A stretch of 64,000 nt of DNA, from the NCBI GenBank assembly GCA_903825645.1, contig CAIKBL010000027.1, forward strand, positions 35,036-99,035, written 5' to 3'. Below are positions 22,757 through 34,552 of the stretch, piece by piece; position 1 is the stretch's first letter, and each line of letters starts with the position of its first letter. Origin of the DNA: an uncultured Pseudomonadota bacterium (GTDB lineage: Bacteria; Pseudomonadota; Gammaproteobacteria; Ga0077536). Below the pieces are notes generated by a model. It made no database searches and was not told where the DNA came from. It saw nothing but the letters and a program-made list of their open reading frames with translations. Both the position numbers and the translations under genes were made by a program.

Positions 22757-23857
22757 TCAGAGCCGCATCGGCATAACGACATACTTCGCGCCCGATTCCT
22801 TTCCAGCCTGAATCAGACAACTACTATTCGAGTCGGATAAGACAAAACGTATAGTGTCTCCTTGCAGGACGCTAAGAACGTCCAACAAGTAAGAGACGTT
22901 GAAACCAATCTCTAGAGGCTCCCCGTCGTAGCTAACCTCGATTTCTTCTTCTGCTTCTTCCTGCTCCGGATTATGCGCGGAGGCCTTTAAAACGCCCTTA
23001 CCAAAGTTAAGCCGGACACCCCTGAATTTTTCATTAGACAATATCGACGTTCGCTGCAGCGCTGATTTTGTGGTTTCGCGATCTGCTTCAATAATCTTGT
23101 CGCCGCCCTTAGGTAACACACGCTCGTAATCTGGATATTTTCCATCGACCAGTTTAACGGTTAAGGTCTGGTTCAAGACGGATACGCGCAGCACGTTAGC
23201 GGATATGCCCACGTCGATGGGTGCTGTCGTATGACTCGCTAAGCGCTGAATTTCATTAACCCCTTTACGAGGCACAATCAGCTGGCGGGTTTCTTTCAGA
23301 TCCAAGGGCATCGAATGTTCATTTAAGGCTAACCGATGGCCGTCGGTTGCTACCGCCTTAATCGACGTTTCATTAAGTTCCAGCAACAGCCCGTTCAAAT
23401 AATACCGAACGTCCTCGTGTGCCATGGCGAACTGGGTGCTGGCTATGAGTCCTTGCAATACAGCGCTGTCGATCGTGAACGCGATTTCATCCGTCGCATA
23501 TCCAATGCTAGGGTAATCGGTGGCGGGCAAGGTAGACAGGACAAATCGACTGCGGCCGGATTGAATTCTTATTTTTTTGTCTTTTTCCTCAATCTGCACG
23601 AGGGACTGAGCTGGTAGAGAACGACAAATATCGAGCAGTTTTCGGCCCGATACCGTTAGAACACCTTCCTGGCTAATTTTCGCTACGCTTCGCGCGACCG
23701 CTTCAACTTCCTGATCTGTCGCCGTAATGCTGACGTTCTCCCCTTCCGCTGCAAAAAGCACATTACTAAGTATTGAACCCGTCTGTCGTTTCTCGACGAT
23801 GTTCGCGACAGCCTGAAGTGCTAGCAACAGGTTTTCTCTTTCAATACTTATCTTCAT
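22757..23857 (-). CDS. dnaN: DNA polymerase III beta sliding clamp
   Basis: 366 aa with N-terminus MKISIERENLLLALQAVANIVEKRQT and C-terminus ...MPMRL. Confidence 0.9.
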   Translation of the reverse strand: MKISIERENLLLALQAVANIVEKRQTGSILSNVLFAAEGENVSITATDQEVEAVARSVAKISQEGVLTVSGRKLLDICRSLPAQSLVQIEEKDKKIRIQSGRSRFVLSTLPATDYPSIGYATDEIAFTIDSAVLQGLIASTQFAMAHEDVRYYLNGLLLELNETSIKAVATDGHRLALNEHSMPLDLKETRQLIVPRKGVNEIQRLASHTTAPIDVGISANVLRVSVLNQTLTVKLVDGKYPDYERVLPKGGDKIIEADRETTKSALQRTSILSNEKFRGVRLNFGKGVLKASAHNPEQEEAEEEIEVSYDGEPLEIGFNVSYLLDVLSVLQGDTIRFVLSDSNSSCLIQAGKESGAKYVVMPMRL

Positions 23858-24044
23858 CTTAGTATTAGTTCTATTTAAAGTTAGTAGTTGTAGTAATTAA
23901 ACGGGGGCATAAGTCTAATAGTTATTTTTTTCTTTATAAAACATGTTGATACAACGTATTTTTTGAACGAAAAAAATGTAAAAGTGACGTTGGACCTGTG
24001 GATAACTTGGTGTAACTGAATATCGACACTTAAACCGACCCAAG
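23858..24044. promoter_or_regulatory. AT-rich (about 30% GC) dnaA-dnaN spacer carrying a perfect DnaA box (TTATCCACA at about 23997-24005 on the minus strand); candidate DNA-unwinding or origin-associated element
   Basis: Read from the sequence as ...cctgTGTGGATAActtgg. The flanking A/T-rich runs contrast sharply with the roughly 60% GC of the window. Confidence 0.45.
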
Positions 24045-25400
24045 TTAGCTGCTCAGTATTCTCTCGAGATTGACAAAATCCTCATTGATTTTGTTCTCGG
24101 CGTGCCGCAGCTCCACAATTTTTCTGCACGCATGAATGACAGTAGTATGGTCTCTCCCGCCGAAGGCATCACCAATTTCCGGAAGACTATGATTAGTAAG
24201 CTCTTTTGATAAAGCCATCGCTATCTGTCGCGGTCTTGCAATAGACCGGTTACGGCGTTTCGAGACTAAGTCCGAGACGCGCATCTTGTAATATTCCGCC
24301 ACTGTTTTCTGAATGTTCTCGATGGAGATAAGTTTATCCTGTAGCGCTAACAAATCCTTTAACGCTTCGCGGGCAAAATCAATCGTGATTAAACTGCCTG
24401 AGAAGTGAGCGTTTGCTTCCATTCTATGTAAGGCGCCTTCTAGCTCCCTGATATTCGAACGAAAACGTTTGGCGACGAAAAAAGCCACTTCGTGAGGCAG
24501 CTGCAACCCACTTCGCTCCGCTTTGCTCATCAGGATAGCCACACGGGTTTCGAGTTCTGGCGGCTCTATTGCCACGGTTAGACCCCAACCGAATCGTGAC
24601 TTAAGACGCTCCTCGACACCGATGACCTCTCGCGGATAACGGTCACAGGTCAAAATTATTTGCTGTTGACTTTCAAGTAACGCATTGAAAGTATGAAAAA
24701 ATTCCTCCTGGGAACGTTCTTTTCCTGCAAAAAATTGAATATCATCAATAAGCAAAGCATCTAGGGTTCGATACTTTCTTTTAAATTCGTTGATGGAGTT
24801 GTGTTGCAGCGCCCGAACCATGTCACCCACAAATTTTTCGGAATGGATGTACTGAACCTTGGCATTCGGTTTGCGACTGACGACTAGATTCCCTATCGCC
24901 TGCATGAGATGGGTTTTACCCAACCCGACCCCGCCACAGATGAATAGCGGGTTGTACGCTTTTCCTGGATTTTCAGCCACTTGGAGAGAAGCAGCACGCG
25001 CGAGTTGATTGGATTTGCCTTCGACAAAACTCTCAAAGGAAAAATCTCTCTTCAACCCTTTACTTGGTGGCCCACGCCTAGCGCTATCTGCGGGGGGAGG
25101 GACACCAGGTAGAGGGTCCGGCGTTCGCGCGACCTCAACCTCGGTGGCTTCCGCAACATCGGTGACGACAAACCCAACTTTATCTACGCCACCTTTCGAG
25201 AGATCGCGGGCGACATCTTCTATTTTACGGCCGTATTTATCTCGGACCCATTCACAGACAAACTTGTTAGGCGCCGATACCGTGAGGGTCGAACCCTGCA
25301 CGTAGGCGCTTAGCGGGCGGATCCACGTGTTGTATTGCTGAGGCGTCAGATCGCCTTCCAATATACGCAGAACGGTCGGCCAGGAAAGCGTCATGGGCAT
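24045..25400 (-). CDS. dnaA: Chromosomal replication initiator DnaA
   Basis: 451 aa with the AAA+ Walker [17 protein letters not shown], DnaA box-binding domain IV, and N-terminus WIRPL. Confidence 0.95.
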
Positions 25401-27729: not shown

Positions 27730-29076
27730 ATGAATGCTACTCAGACTATTGCCGCTGTCGCGACAGCTAGCGGCCGCGGCGCTATAGGCATTGTTAGGCT
27801 TTCTGGAGATCGCGCGCGCGATATTGCGACACGCATCGTCAAACAGTTGCCGCCGCCGCGGTATGCGGCACTAAGACATTTCTATCGCGAAGACAAAGAC
27901 ACCATCGACCGGGGCCTGATTATTTATTTTCCAGGACCTGCTTCGTATACCGGCGAAGATATGGTTGAGTTCCACACGCACGGTGGCCCCGCCGTCATAC
28001 GCGAACTCATGCAAACGCTGTATGCCGCGGGAGCCGTTCCTGCCCGTCCGGGAGAGTTCACTGAAAGAGCGTTCCTGAATGGGAAGCTCGATCTTCTCCA
28101 GGCAGAGGCAGTCGCCGATTTAATAAGTGTAAGTACGCAACGGGGATTACGCTCGGCAAATCTAGCGATTACGGGACACTTTTCGAACACCATCAATAGT
28201 ATCGCCGCCCAGCTAAAGAATATCCGCGCTGAATTAGAAGCCACGATAGATTTCGGCGACGAGGCGTCTGTCAACGTAGAGGTCGACCACTTAATCAACC
28301 CCCTCCTATCCGTGACGGCTGACGTATCGTTACTTCTCGAACGCGCGCATAAGGGCGCTCGTCTTGCGCGGGGCGTCCGGGTCGTTCTCGTCGGACCGCC
28401 TAATGTCGGCAAGTCGACGCTGCTGAACGCCCTCTCTGGACAGGAGCGCGCCATCGTAAGCGATGTGCCTGGCACGACGCGTGATGTCCTCAGTACGGAA
28501 ATCGATATCGGCGGTGTACTGATCACCCTGCTGGACACAGCAGGGTTGCGTGTGGCGCGAGAAGAAATAGAGCGGGAGGGAATCCGTCGAGCGCTGAAGG
28601 AAGTACAGGCTGCTGATTTGATCCTTTGGCTTTATGAAGCGACCGAGGCTTTTCCCAACATCAGAGATTTTCTACCCGAAGAGGAAGCGCTGCCGGACAC
28701 CATCATTTACGTCCGTACTAAAATTGATGCGCTAGGGGAACTCCCGGACAGCCGAGTGGTGCAGGGTTGCCAAGAGATAAGTCTAGCGGCACGACATGCC
28801 AAAGGGCTCGATTTGTTACGTGATGCTATTGCTCACGCGATGGCCATCGAAGACGAGGGCGATTGTCCACTGTTGGCGCGCGAGCGACACCTACAGGCAC
28901 TAGCGACCGCCCATAAAATGCTCTCTTTTACGTCGCCCGCTGATTTTGTAAATGATCCGGCCGAGTCAGCCGAACGTCTCAGGATTGCGCATGATGCGCT
29001 GCGAGAATTGACTGGAGAGTTTACGACGGAAGATCTTTTGGGCGAAATATTTTCGAAATTCTGTATCGGAAAATAA
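27730..29076 (+). CDS. mnmE: tRNA modification GTPase MnmE (TrmE)
   Basis: G-domain motifs GPPNVGKSTLLN and DTAG, with the C-terminal CIGK motif. The start is taken at the internal Met MNATQTIAAVATA. Confidence 0.9.
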   Translation: MNATQTIAAVATASGRGAIGIVRLSGDRARDIATRIVKQLPPPRYAALRHFYREDKDTIDRGLIIYFPGPASYTGEDMVEFHTHGGPAVIRELMQTLYAAGAVPARPGEFTERAFLNGKLDLLQAEAVADLISVSTQRGLRSANLAITGHFSNTINSIAAQLKNIRAELEATIDFGDEASVNVEVDHLINPLLSVTADVSLLLERAHKGARLARGVRVVLVGPPNVGKSTLLNALSGQERAIVSDVPGTTRDVLSTEIDIGGVLITLLDTAGLRVAREEIEREGIRRALKEVQAADLILWLYEATEAFPNIRDFLPEEEALPDTIIYVRTKIDALGELPDSRVVQGCQEISLAARHAKGLDLLRDAIAHAMAIEDEGDCPLLARERHLQALATAHKMLSFTSPADFVNDPAESAERLRIAHDALRELTGEFTTEDLLGEIFSKFCIGK

Positions 29077-29505
29077 CAAGGTTTTGCGACCGACGCCGAA
29101 GCGCTCCGCTCCACACACATTTTTTTACAAAACCACTACTCAAAAGGGCCACGCCTTACGGATAGGGGTACCGGCAGGCGTAATCGTTCAATGTCTAGAA
29201 GGTTTTCTCTGACACCTGGGCGATTTTCGAGGACTCACATGTGATTCGTGTGCCTCTGCCGGTGGACAGAAAAAACACGGTAACCTAGGGAGGTTATGCT
29301 AAAAATTCTAGCTTTTTCTTCCAATCCCCCCTCCTATAATATTTAACGAATTGATTCATGTGAGCCAATGCCTAAGGAAGAAGCCCCGACGCTAAACGGC
29401 AAGAAGCCAGGGAGCCGATAGCGCTCGTCGTATTAGATTTCGAGCGGTTTAATTACCATAATGTTCACGCCGCATCGATAGGAGCGGTGAAGGACGGGAA
29501 TATTC

Positions 29506-29898
29506 ATGACTGTGCGTATAGAGATCTCCTTTGGTGAGTTAGTCGACAGACTCACTATTTTGGAAATCAAGGCATCGCGAATTGAAGCGCCACTTAAATT
29601 GGTTAATATTCGAGAAGAACTTGCTTCCCTAAGCAAGAGTTGGGTAGAGAGTGTAGGACCAGAGATATCACCCGATATTTTTAAGATCCGGCAAGCGTTG
29701 AAGCGCGTCAATGAGATCTTGTGGGATGTCGAAGATGCGATTAGAGATCATGAGCGGAATAAAAATTTCGGAGAATCGTTCATCGAACTTGCCCGAAAGG
29801 TCTATGTTACAAACGATGAAAGGGCTCAGCTGAAAAAGCGTATTGATGCCCTCATGGGATCTCGATTCAGTGAAGAGAAATCATATCGCGCCTATTGA
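29506..29898 (+). CDS. Hypothetical alpha-helical protein of unknown function, low-GC gene
   Basis: 130-aa ORF (MTVRIEISFGELVDRLTILEIK...) with about 43% GC in a roughly 60% GC genome. A perfect TATAAT hexamer lies about 170 nt upstream. No recognisable domain could be assigned. Confidence 0.4.
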   Translation: MTVRIEISFGELVDRLTILEIKASRIEAPLKLVNIREELASLSKSWVESVGPEISPDIFKIRQALKRVNEILWDVEDAIRDHERNKNFGESFIELARKVYVTNDERAQLKKRIDALMGSRFSEEKSYRAY

Positions 29899-30197
29899 CG
29901 TGATTTTGATATTTATCCGGGTCTTTACAGTCCTACTGAGCGCCGAAAAAATCGGCGGCGTTTCTTTTAAGCCTCAGCTAATGGGTAGGTTACCAATGTT
30001 TCAGAAAGCGGTTCCTGCTGCGCGGTCTCAGGCGCATCAAGGGATGGAAAGGGTAAAAAGAACGCATTGTATCCTGGCGTTGGCGTCACGGACGTCAGCG
30101 CTGGCCGCAAACAAATGGCGTATCGCGCAACGAAAGAATAACCCGGTTAATCAGGCCGAAGCTGTGCTGGAAAATGTTTGGCGCTGAGGGAGCGGGA

Positions 30198-31100
30198 ATG
30201 CCGCGTCTGCTGTTTATCACGTTGAGTAATATCGGCGATTTGGTTTTGACCACACCAGCGCTGGAAGCGCTCCATCACGGTTATCCCGATCACCTGATAG
30301 ACGTCGTCGCGGATACCCGATCCAGTGTGCTGCTACGCGCTTGCCCGTATCTCGGTACGCTCTATCATCGCCAGAAATCTGACGGGATCCGCGGTTTGCT
30401 GGGCTTGGTTACCGAACTCCGAAAACGTCGTTACACCGCCATTGTCGATTTAAGGACCGATTATCTGCCTTGGTTACTTCGCGGTGATCGGCGGGCCAGC
30501 CGCTGGCGCCGACCGCCACACGGTATTCACGCGGTCGAGCAGCATTTCGCCATCACCTCTCAAGTATTTCCTTTTGCCGTTGCCTTACCGGTCACGCGGG
30601 TTTGGGTCTCGCCGGAGGACATTGCTAGCGCCAAAACCCTATTGGCGAAGAAGACACGGGGTCGTTGGTTAGCGCTCGCACCAGGCGCCAACTGGGCCGG
30701 CAAAATTTGGCCGGTGAGCCATTTTGCGGCGCTGGTAGCTGCTGTCACCGATATTTTTGATGGTGTCATTATTCTCGGCAGCCCACCGGATGCGGTTGCG
30801 GCGGAAATCTTGATTGAAAATTGCCCGCTACCCTGCCTCAATGTTGTGGGAAAGACTTCACTTACAGTGGCTGCCGCGGTGTGTGACGAGGTGGACGCGT
30901 TTGTTGGAAATGACTCGGGCCTTGGACATATCGCGGCTGCACGAGGGATCCCCACGCTGACCTTGTTTGGTCCTGGTCGCCCAGATCGTTATGTGCCGTG
31001 GGGACCTAAAGCGAGTCGTGTTTTGGCGCCGGCAGAGGATCTGAAAGCTCTCCAAGCGCCAGTTGTCGGCGCTGCGCTGCGTGCGCTTCTTGCCCGTTGA
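30198..31100 (+). CDS. Glycosyltransferase family 9 (ADP-heptose:LPS heptosyltransferase, WaaC/WaaF/WaaQ-like)
   Basis: N-terminus MPRLLFITLSNIGDLVLTTPALEAL and a GT9 C-terminal domain (GNDSGLGHIAAA). An RBS GAGGGAG lies upstream. Confidence 0.75.
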   Translation: MPRLLFITLSNIGDLVLTTPALEALHHGYPDHLIDVVADTRSSVLLRACPYLGTLYHRQKSDGIRGLLGLVTELRKRRYTAIVDLRTDYLPWLLRGDRRASRWRRPPHGIHAVEQHFAITSQVFPFAVALPVTRVWVSPEDIASAKTLLAKKTRGRWLALAPGANWAGKIWPVSHFAALVAAVTDIFDGVIILGSPPDAVAAEILIENCPLPCLNVVGKTSLTVAAAVCDEVDAFVGNDSGLGHIAAARGIPTLTLFGPGRPDRYVPWGPKASRVLAPAEDLKALQAPVVGAALRALLAR

Positions 31101-33589: not shown

Positions 33590-34552
33590 GTGAAGATACT
33601 CGCCATAAAACTTGGGGCTCTCGGTGATGTCATCATGGCGACGGCTGTCCTGCGCCAGCTTTGCGCCGATTATCGCCACGCAGAAATCTGGCTGTTGACC
33701 GTACCGGCATTTGCGCCGCTTTTTGTAGGGTGGCCGCAACTTCATGTGCATGCGGTTCCGCGACACGGTCTGCGGAATACCTGGCGGACGTTGCGTTGGA
33801 TCCGCCAGCAGCGCTTCGACCGGGTCTATGATCTGCAATCCAACGATCGCACCCGCTGGTGGTGCCTCTTTTCAGGTGTGCCGGTGCGCATTGGTAATCA
33901 CCCCTATTTCCCCTATACGATCCATCCACCGGCTCCTTATGTGGGACAATGCCACGCCTTCGCGCGCCTGAATGACATTCTCGAAAGCGCTGGACACCAG
34001 GCGGCCCCAGCGACGCCTTTTTTGCCCCCGAATAAGCATGAACAAACGCAAGTACGGGAATGGATGCGGGCACAGGATCTCGTCGAGCGCAACTTTGTTC
34101 TGCTGCATGCAGGCGCCAGCGTAAAACACCCAGCCAAGCGCTGGCCGTATTATGCTGAGCTGGCTGCAGCGCTAAAGTCGCGAGGACTGCAGATCGTGTG
34201 GATCGGCGGGGAAGACGACGCGACCCTCAACCGGGCGTTGTCAGGGGCAGTCGGGATTGATGCGACAGGCCGATTTACGGTAGCCGAATTGGCTGAGCTT
34301 GGGCGACATGCCCGCTTTGCGGTCACGAATGATTCAGCGCCGATGCATATCCTGTCTTGTTCAGGGATCCCTATTTTCGGGTTATTCGGGCCGACTGATT
34401 GGCGTCGCACGCATGCCTTGGGTCAGGGCGCGTATATCATCAGCCTTGACCGGGCGGCAACTCGGTCGCAGTGTAATTCGGAAGACCAAAGACTCGACCT
34501 AATTCCCGCCTCTCGGGTTCTGCAGCGCCTAATCGAGGAGAAAGTGTGCTGA
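33590..34552 (+). CDS. Glycosyltransferase family 9 heptosyltransferase
   Basis: N-terminus MKILAIKLGALGDVIMATAVLRQL and C-terminal NDSAPMH, diagnostic of the GT9 family. Confidence 0.75.
   Translation: MKILAIKLGALGDVIMATAVLRQLCADYRHAEIWLLTVPAFAPLFVGWPQLHVHAVPRHGLRNTWRTLRWIRQQRFDRVYDLQSNDRTRWWCLFSGVPVRIGNHPYFPYTIHPPAPYVGQCHAFARLNDILESAGHQAAPATPFLPPNKHEQTQVREWMRAQDLVERNFVLLHAGASVKHPAKRWPYYAELAAALKSRGLQIVWIGGEDDATLNRALSGAVGIDATGRFTVAELAELGRHARFAVTNDSAPMHILSCSGIPIFGLFGPTDWRRTHALGQGAYIISLDRAATRSQCNSEDQRLDLIPASRVLQRLIEEKVC

Follow-up and report, generated by a model that had tools for sequence, protein, structure and literature searches.

A DUF6165-family gene at an apparently ancestral site beside mnmE, and its proposed partnership with glycan-building transferases

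The Locus

The stretch of DNA analysed here, referred to throughout as the window, comprises 64,000 nucleotides of an uncultured gammaproteobacterium of the lineage Ga0077536 (contig CAIKBL010000027.1), and the segment of interest within it lies between mnmE, encoding a transfer RNA (tRNA) modification GTPase, and a cluster of glycan genes. This segment carries a gene for a protein of 130 residues, flanked by one non-coding spacer on each side (Table 1). The initial annotation of this DNA had described the layout correctly: mnmE ends at 29076 and is followed by a gap of 429 bp that is poor in open reading frames (ORFs), the 130-residue ORF has a guanine-plus-cytosine (GC) content of 43.5%, the next gene of glycosyltransferase family 9 (GT9) follows at a distance of about 300 bp, and the drop in GC past mnmE is genuine. 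The same annotation took the segment for a candidate horizontally acquired insertion with structured non-coding DNA and a protein of unfamiliar type, and on these matters the evidence points elsewhere. Judged by its sequence, the 130-residue ORF is an ordinary member of DUF6165, a widespread family of unknown function. The reading that we hold to be moderately probable, taken as a whole, is that of a vertically inherited gene at its ancestral site, the product of which, a small cytoplasmic four-helix protein, works with transferases of the GT-B type, mainly GT9 enzymes, on the core of lipopolysaccharide (LPS) or on other glycans.

The Protein and Its Family

The 130-residue protein matches the Pfam family DUF6165 (PF19662) with 38.7 bits (E = 1e-9; residues 4–128 on profile positions 2–116 of 134; cutoff 27). 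A second match, to DUF4254 (PF14063; 30.4 bits against a cutoff of 27), is confined to residues 64–122, which carry the motif of helices 3 and 4 and occupy only positions 6–61 of the 144 in that profile. The earlier remark that this ORF has no recognisable domain therefore has to be withdrawn. Since the protein is nearer to DUF6165 and its match to DUF4254 is partial, DUF6165 and DUF4254 look like sister groups with a common core; both profiles are matched by all 41 homologues aligned here (alignment A1). A search of 5.8 billion proteins returned 94 homologues, all of them DUF6165 members, among 1.84 billion cluster representatives, the profile matched 8190 clusters (50% identity, E ≤ 0.001), and a single peptide pattern occurs in at least 589 species genomes. 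In the literature searched, we found no paper that mentions DUF6165 or describes the family.

Alignment A1 contains 24 invariant columns, mostly polar, and 14 near-invariant ones, and the window protein carries the consensus residue in every one of them. The invariant columns include D14, E38, N69, W73, E76, D77, R80, R97, Y100, N103, D104, R106, K110 and K125, and the invariant polar residues are spread over all four helices of the predicted fold plus a conserved EEK-x-Y tail. In the window protein, the family motifs NExLWxxEDxIR, ARxVYxTNDxR and EEKxY are all present, and the residues that are invariant in A1 are also invariant in the fusion proteins described below. The serine in the EEKSY tail was considered as a site of modification and rejected, as this position varies among S, Q, E, A, C, G and K, with E, E, K and Y being fixed. 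The EEK-x-Y sequence is kept when it is internal, so that a free C-terminus is not needed.

Structure prediction, one of the checks that the initial annotation had proposed, gave a confident AlphaFold2 (AF2) model, with a predicted local distance difference test (pLDDT) score of 94.2, a predicted TM-score (pTM) of 0.86 and helices at residues 9–25, 29–50, 56–84 and 90–117; the product is thus predicted to be a cytoplasmic four-helix protein. None of the solved structures is specifically similar to this model (Foldseek E ≥ 0.2, TM ≤ 0.5), and a structure search by sequence profile returned coiled-coil noise only. Remote Pfam relationships were sought by scanning the 41 homologues to an E value of 1, and only DUF6165 and DUF4254 recurred. 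Nothing was matched in PHROGs, and a PADLOC match to LmuB (14.5 bits, coiled-coil-like) was dismissed. The gene has a codon score of 0.13, inside the range of real genes (0.11–0.39), and it looks intact and still selected.

Position in Related Genomes

In the four closest relatives (L168–L171), the genes follow one another in the order yidC, mnmE, DUF6165, a further GT9 gene (hereafter GT9x) and the counterpart of the GT9 gene that begins at 30174 in the window (hereafter GT9a). The string is compact, with 8 bp between mnmE and DUF6165 and 1 bp between DUF6165 and GT9x, the latter two overlapping in L171. Between the window and these four genomes, identities amount to 73–74% for yidC, 55–62% for mnmE, 60–64% for DUF6165 and 65–66% for GT9a. 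Among more distant relatives, the order DUF6165–GT9x–GT9a is kept in L003, L005, L063, L028 and L075, together with a DsbA-like gene in the first three of these, and yidC and mnmE precede DUF6165 in L016 and L075. The gap between mnmE and DUF6165 measures 7–13 bp across the relatives, the 13 bp being found in L016. In these six distant genomes, the identities of DUF6165 again match those of its neighbours. The nearest DUF6165 homologues are the syntenic relatives, the other bacterial ones seen reaching at most 57% and the viral ones at most 52% identity.

Because the gene occupies the same site in the relatives with congruent identities, it is not part of a foreign island, and identity comparisons of DUF6165, mnmE and GT9a give no indication of phylogenetic incongruence. 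The window contains no tRNA gene, no flanking direct repeats were found in 28800–30500, and none of the ORFs in the segment encodes an integrase, a transposase or another mobility function. When the mnmE junction is compared across relatives, the gene stands at its ancestral position and no insertion is seen, contrary to the horizontal acquisition that had been suggested. The likeness to genomic islands beside housekeeping genes lies in the dip of GC and of GC at third codon positions (GC3) next to a conserved gene; the difference lies in the missing tRNA, integrase and repeats, and in a gene that relatives share at the site.

At the DNA level, homology to L168–L171 ends near 29075, covers the gene, ends again near 29903 and resumes near 30165. 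These breakpoints define three traits specific to the window lineage, namely the 429-bp upstream spacer, a downstream spacer of about 265 bp and the absence of GT9x. Orthologues of GT9x are 45–68% identical to one another among the relatives, and none occurs in the 64 kb, where only paralogue-level matches (24–32%) were found. A pseudogene remnant of GT9x in 29899–30197 was sought by tblastn with the GT9x proteins of nine relatives and rejected, since only the start of GT9a and the end of DUF6165 were hit. According to these comparisons, the change at the locus has been the loss of a gene (GT9x) and not a gain. The ancestral arrangement of the clade would have been the compact yidC–mnmE–DUF6165–GT9x–GT9a string; the window lineage would have lost GT9x, and its intact DUF6165 now stands between two AT-richer non-coding spacers that match nothing in the relatives.

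Association with Glycosyltransferases across the Family

The neighbourhood of DUF6165 was surveyed in 80 species genomes by means of a GT9 profile refined iteratively on the loci retrieved. In 66 of these genomes a GT9 gene is found no more than 6 kb away, and in 55 no more than 450 bp away. Fifteen of these 55 adjacent genes follow DUF6165 on its own strand, in many cases with a start/stop overlap, 34 are downstream and convergent, five are upstream on the same strand and one is upstream on the opposite strand. Without the 24 Marinobacter genomes, an adjacent GT9 is found in 37 of 56 (hand count), and the genomes concerned span Gamma- and Alphaproteobacteria, Planctomycetota, Desulfobacterota and Fibrobacterota. 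The GT9 neighbours that were sampled are confirmed by NCBIfam and Pfam, all of them scoring under the WaaC, WaaF and WaaQ cutoffs, and the DUF6165-adjacent GT9s fall into at least four GT9 subfamilies. At loci without an adjacent GT9, the neighbours include members of glycosyltransferase family 4 (GT4) and FkbM methyltransferases.

Fusions were surveyed among the best 150 of the 8190 cluster representatives, 46 of which are long members. Four architectures occur, with tetratricopeptide repeats (TPR) in two of them: TPR-GT9-DUF6165, GT9-DUF6165, DUF6165-TPR-GT4 and DUF6165-FkbM. TPR repeats are present in 23 of the 46 long representatives and a Pfam-detectable GT9 domain in 13, and in the TPR-bearing members the consensus runs via a GT9-type C-terminal half straight into DUF6165. 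In one protein (P0186), a domain like those of glycosyltransferase family 2 (GT2), this part being judged by eye, is fused to DUF6165. Tandem duplicates of DUF6165 number 12 among the best 150 representatives. Two other cases stand apart: P0133 combines DUF6165 with a cation-efflux C-terminal/ZT_dimer region, which may reflect an error in gene calling, and on the contig of P0091 (L086) a divergent homologue of 42% identity lies amid many small ORFs together with genes for a SET-domain protein and two DNA methylases, a context that looks like a phage or mobile element with no glycosyltransferase in view.

The family extends to viruses. A scan of IMG/VR yielded at least 507 confirmed DUF6165 stretches, with a mean locus GC of 35% (L087–L166), and the viral neighbours comprise multidomain proteins with GT9, in some cases with GT4, FkbM methyltransferases, sulfotransferases, DegT sugar aminotransferases and 2-oxoglutarate-Fe(II) oxygenases. 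For instance, the DUF6165 gene gp348 of the cultured Synechococcus phage S-SRM01 (L167; NC_070963.1, 230268–237615) has sulfotransferase and nucleotide-sugar epimerase genes on its flanks and overlaps a glycosyltransferase gene at the stop codon of the latter. In proteins of giant viruses (Pithovirus, Klosneuvirus, Mimivirus metagenome-assembled genomes), the DUF6165 domain is fused to transferases. A separate observation concerns 12–14 viral loci (e.g., L097, 1138–2838, and L093, 4384–5340) in which DUF6165 lies between ORFs matching different parts of a family-B DNA polymerase, an arrangement that suggests a polymerase gene broken in two, with other genes inserted between its parts.

As a genomic association at the level of the family, the link of DUF6165 to glycan-building transferases is supported by these sequence comparisons. 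A linkage to glycosyltransferases is already noted for the sister family DUF4254, which is listed as linked to RfaF (PMC9425974). The suggestion that the protein may be a novel accessory factor of the glycosyltransferase cluster can thus be retained in part: adjacency, fusions and the viral loci bear out the association for the family, whereas such a factor is not new in kind. With other members of PF19662, the window gene has in common a whole-length match, the length typical of the family, the invariant motifs and the GT9 gene context found for hundreds of members, and it differs from them in lacking the adjacent GT9x of its nearest relatives, in its two unmatched spacers and in its low GC3. 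With DUF4254, it shares the central helix-3/helix-4 motif and the genomic association with GT9, the difference being the short part of that profile which it covers.

A Partner of Transferases or a Small Enzyme

If DUF6165 works with transferases, its most likely role would be that of a partner module, with either the transferase or the acceptor as the binding target. The translational coupling to a transferase seen in other organisms, or fusion to it by a flexible linker, points to a module of this kind, and the invariant polar residues contributed by the four helices and by the EEK-x-Y tail resemble a binding site. The working unit would probably be a dimer, as the tandem-duplicated versions suggest. 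The donors of the fusion partners differ, being nucleoside diphosphate (NDP) sugars for GT9, GT4 and GT2 and S-adenosylmethionine (SAM) for FkbM, which argues for a role in acceptor binding, scaffolding or localisation rather than in donor chemistry; sulfotransferases, with 3'-phosphoadenosine-5'-phosphosulfate (PAPS) as donor, are found among the neighbours. In the window, GT9x is missing and DUF6165 is nevertheless intact, so that the protein would serve GT9a, the second GT9 gene of the cluster (GT9b) or another transferase, unless GT9x lies outside the 64 kb. For P0224, a natural fusion, AF2 gives a model (pTM 0.70) in which the GT9 and DUF6165 parts are confident and the linker between them, residues 315–325, has a pLDDT below 50. 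An analogy, and no more than that, is offered by Campylobacter jejuni Cj1432 (PMC12096443), whose C-terminal four-helix bundle is likewise a small helical unit attached to a glycan-building transferase and has no demonstrated role.

It is important to stress that several points weigh against the reading given here as a whole. The usual partner, GT9x, is absent from the window while DUF6165 looks intact there. In 14 of the 80 loci no GT9 gene lies within 6 kb (2 of the 14 end just after the gene), and some loci without GT9 have unrelated neighbours, such as DnaJ, aminotransferases and GGDEF proteins. The GT9 gene of Marinobacter and of many other Gammaproteobacteria runs convergently to DUF6165, so that the two are not co-transcribed, and the pTM of the P0224 model gives nothing firm on a fixed interface. 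The GC3 deficit of the window gene, considered in the next section, is not accounted for by vertical descent. Finally, a protein of 130 residues with about 22 polar positions that are invariant or nearly so would equally suit the description of a small enzyme.

This last point belongs to the main rival explanation, according to which DUF6165 is a stand-alone small enzyme or a binder of a small molecule (a sugar, a nucleotide or a core phosphate) that shares pathways with the transferases and is not their physical partner. The polar positions among the invariant and near-invariant columns come from all four helices and the tail, and the invariant residues are kept from bacteria through giant viruses, which speaks for an enzyme or a ligand-binding protein; the 34 loci with a convergent GT9, in which co-translation is not required, and the survival of the window gene without GT9x fit this explanation too. 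Nevertheless, no similarity to helical enzyme folds was found, the Pfam matches being limited to two DUFs, and the unrelated donors among the fusion partners are hard to square with a single small-molecule reaction. The frequent start/stop overlap with the transferase gene suggests, in turn, stoichiometric co-production. On balance, we consider a stand-alone enzyme unlikely, and a protein that works with GT-B transferases remains the interpretation preferred here.

The GC Dip and a Possible Replacement

The window has a GC content of 57.1%, and the DUF6165 gene lies 13.6 points lower; of all 393-bp windows in the 64 kb, the one covering this gene belongs to the lowest 0.8%, and only the dnaN–dnaA region is lower. 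Around that region, at 23541–25044, GC reaches its minimum for the whole stretch (0.366 near 23821), and the replication origin probably lies there. Both GC and GC3 of the DUF6165 gene are 0.435, against approximately 0.55–0.59 (GC) and 0.55–0.65 (GC3) in the neighbouring genes. A deficit in GC is a property of the family, because the protein is rich in Lys, Glu, Ile and Asn: DUF6165 genes average 4 GC points under their flanks and are lower in 75 of the 80 loci. In the relatives, the gene lies about 6–12 GC points under the adjacent genes, with a GC3 that is equal or at most about 0.07 below. The comparison of codon usage and GC3 that had been proposed as a check for foreign DNA therefore gives a divided answer, GC3 being low and part of the GC deficit being family-wide.

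Such a composition could also have arisen by replacement of a cassette or by horizontal acquisition, with the low-GC segment 29077–30165 coming from a donor of lower GC and taking the place of the ancestral DUF6165–GT9x pair. The edges of the segment coincide exactly with the ends of homology near 29075 and 30165, its GC is 47.7% in a window of 57%, and the GC3 of the gene is 11–22 points below that of its neighbours, a deficit which in the relatives amounts to at most about 0.07. In addition, a gene-versus-flank deficit in total GC as large as this one is met in only 1 of the 80 family loci, and viral homologues of low GC are plentiful. These observations have to be set against the fact that the nearest protein homologues are the syntenic relatives, at 60–64% and on a par with mnmE and GT9a, that no integrase, tRNA, direct repeat or other signature of a mobile element was found, and that about 4 points of the GC deficit, or about 6–12 relative to adjacent genes in the relatives, follow from the amino-acid composition of the family. 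We therefore regard replacement as distinctly unlikely, and the variant in which the donor was a lower-GC member of the same clade is also of low probability; vertical inheritance of the gene at its ancestral site is the better account.

The Downstream Spacer

The downstream spacer stands where the relatives have GT9x. It contains a terminator-like hairpin, 43 nt past the DUF6165 stop codon, with a local folding energy of -13 kcal/mol (z = -1.3, not significant alone), which might tentatively be taken for a terminator after DUF6165.

An orphan ORF of 114 residues, which lies mostly within this spacer and overlaps both neighbouring genes, is probably not a gene. In its favour, it is the sole open frame across the spacer, with a codon score of +0.06 against about -0.27 in the other five frames, and it is predicted by gene callers on several contigs. 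Its codon score (0.06–0.07) is under that of every real gene tested, which range from 0.11 to 0.39, the terminator-like hairpin falls within it, and the overlap with the neighbours on either side also speaks against it. A search of 5.8 billion proteins gave no homologue except the ORF itself, hence none outside its own genome, and none is found in the syntenic relatives; no match was obtained in Pfam, PHROGs or PADLOC. That the ORF is nonetheless a real gene specific to this lineage seems to us quite improbable.

The Upstream Spacer

The spacer between mnmE and DUF6165 contains, as the initial annotation had said, a TATAAT hexamer, a perfect 10-bp palindrome and an 8-bp inverted repeat, the arms of which are separated by 78 nt. 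When the 429 bp were shuffled 2000 times with dinucleotides preserved, 36% of the shuffles contained a perfect 10-bp palindrome, 50% a perfect 8-bp inverted repeat with arms 3–150 nt apart, and 21% a TATAAT. The three motifs, which had been put forward as notable, are chance features. The gap shows no excess of RNA folding against shuffles on either strand (z = -0.48 on the plus strand, -0.20 on the minus strand), so that the description of this DNA as structured is not borne out. A sub-window of 106 nt bounded by the inverted repeat reaches z = -2.1, having been chosen post hoc because of the repeat.

No Rfam family was found at gathering threshold in the whole window, the best match inside the gap (29077–29505) being of E = 9.4 and 10.5 bits. 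No sigma-70-like promoter was called on the plus strand around TATAAT, where there is no usable -35 element, and no RfaH ops/JUMPstart element occurs at up to one mismatch in 28912–30509. Octamers within one mismatch of GGCGGTAG number 92 in the whole window against 57 ± 8 in shuffles, none of them in the spacer and gene region; this excess is probably an effect of codons or composition. Neither the upstream nor the downstream spacer has a copy elsewhere in the window or any similarity among the 170 fetched loci. The spacers were also considered as repeats, mobile elements or gene remnants, and these origins were rejected, tblastn with all ORFs of the loci giving chance-level matches only. In particular, the 429-bp spacer has no counterpart in any relative examined, its sole other copies coming from the same strain.

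That this gap encodes a small RNA, as had been proposed, or a structured regulatory leader for LPS-core genes is very unlikely: its unusual length (the relatives have 8 bp), its perfect TATAAT and the folding of the repeat-bounded sub-window would speak for such an element, but that sub-window was picked after the repeat had been seen, the whole gap folds as its shuffles do, the motifs occur at chance frequency, the promoter and ops/JUMPstart searches found nothing, Rfam gave nothing better than E = 9.4 inside the gap, and the copies, all from one strain, offer no covariation in its support.

Neighbouring Genes and Other Features

Upstream in the window, gene calls place gyrB, recF, dnaN and dnaA on the minus strand, and downstream of GT9a follow a DsbA-like gene, a Wzy_C/O-antigen-ligase-like gene, the second GT9 gene, two GT4 genes and an acyltransferase gene. 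With the former genes upstream and the glycan genes downstream, the locus lies near the replication origin and heads an LPS-core-like cluster. About 275 bp separate the DUF6165 stop codon from the start of GT9a on the same strand. Gene callers had placed this start at 30198, giving 300 residues; homology to the L171 orthologue begins at the ATG at 30174, which makes a protein of 308 residues likelier. The genes that follow GT9x in L169 and L171 are 65–66% identical to GT9a, with homology from the same position.

The name "first heptosyltransferase" given to GT9a in the initial annotation is too specific. Pfam places it in GT9, and its NCBIfam scores stay under the respective cutoffs for heptosyltransferase III (93.7 against 170.2), II (88.4 against 134.6) and I (72.8 against 185.3); GT9b scores 75 against a cutoff of 134.6. 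For both genes, "heptosyltransferase" is a family label only, as far as sequence scores can tell. An identical DUF6165 protein is present on nine metagenome contigs, and the two contigs with DNA belong to the same strain, with one single-nucleotide polymorphism within the spacer. Between GT9a and the DsbA-like gene, a small ORF of 60–69 residues resembles a gene in its codon score (0.18) and was predicted on several contigs; no Pfam family is matched by it.

Table 1. Features of the locus, with positions in the window
Feature	Position	Strand	Evidence and remarks
yidC	upstream of mnmE		gene call
mnmE (tRNA modification GTPase, 448 aa)	27730..29076	+	Pfam TrmE_N, MnmE_helical, MMR_HSR1; conserved upstream anchor
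Upstream spacer, non-coding, 429 bp, 48.7% GC	29077..29505		no credible ORFs; this lineage only
8-bp inverted repeat ACCGGCAG/CTGCCGGT	29170..29177 / 29256..29263		in upstream spacer
10-bp palindrome TCACATGTGA	29235..29244		in upstream spacer
TATAAT	29335..29340		in upstream spacer
DUF6165-family gene, 130 aa, 43.5% GC	29506..29898	+	Pfam, codon score, alignment A1
Orphan ORF, 114 aa	29843..30187		overlaps both neighbouring genes; mostly within downstream spacer
Downstream spacer (~265 bp)	29904..30164		this lineage only; occupies site of relatives' ~320-aa GT9x gene
Terminator-like hairpin CGCCGA-AAAAA-TCGGCG, T-rich tail	29941..29967	+	consensus scan
GT9a, family-9 glycosyltransferase, heptosyltransferase-like	30174..31100	+	Pfam Glyco_transf_9, 112 bits
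Small ORF, 60–69 aa	31205..31414		codon score; called on several contigs
GT9b, second GT9 gene of the cluster	33590..34552		GT9 family member

Implications

Taken by itself, the window is of little significance, as it holds an ordinary representative of a family already in the catalogues, at the ancestral site, together with non-coding motifs at chance level. The family, on the other hand, is a good target for experiments, with 8190 clusters, a confidently predicted and apparently unassigned fold and a dense set of invariant polar residues; in bacteria as well as in phages and giant viruses, it is tightly linked or fused to transferases of the glycosyl, methyl and sulfo types. Tentatively, and as a possibility rather than an expectation, DUF6165 might be a hitherto unrecognised, dedicated partner subunit or acceptor-binding module of GT-B transferases, on which many non-canonical GT9 enzymes would depend for activity or specificity, and which would be conserved in Proteobacteria, Planctomycetes, cyanophages and giant viruses alike. 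If this were true, the window would be a natural case of a module that has outlived its usual GT9 partner and is re-used by another transferase of the cluster. Once established, the role of DUF6165 would sharpen the annotation of LPS-core and other glycan clusters, and of those GT9 enzymes that are not WaaC, WaaF or WaaQ.

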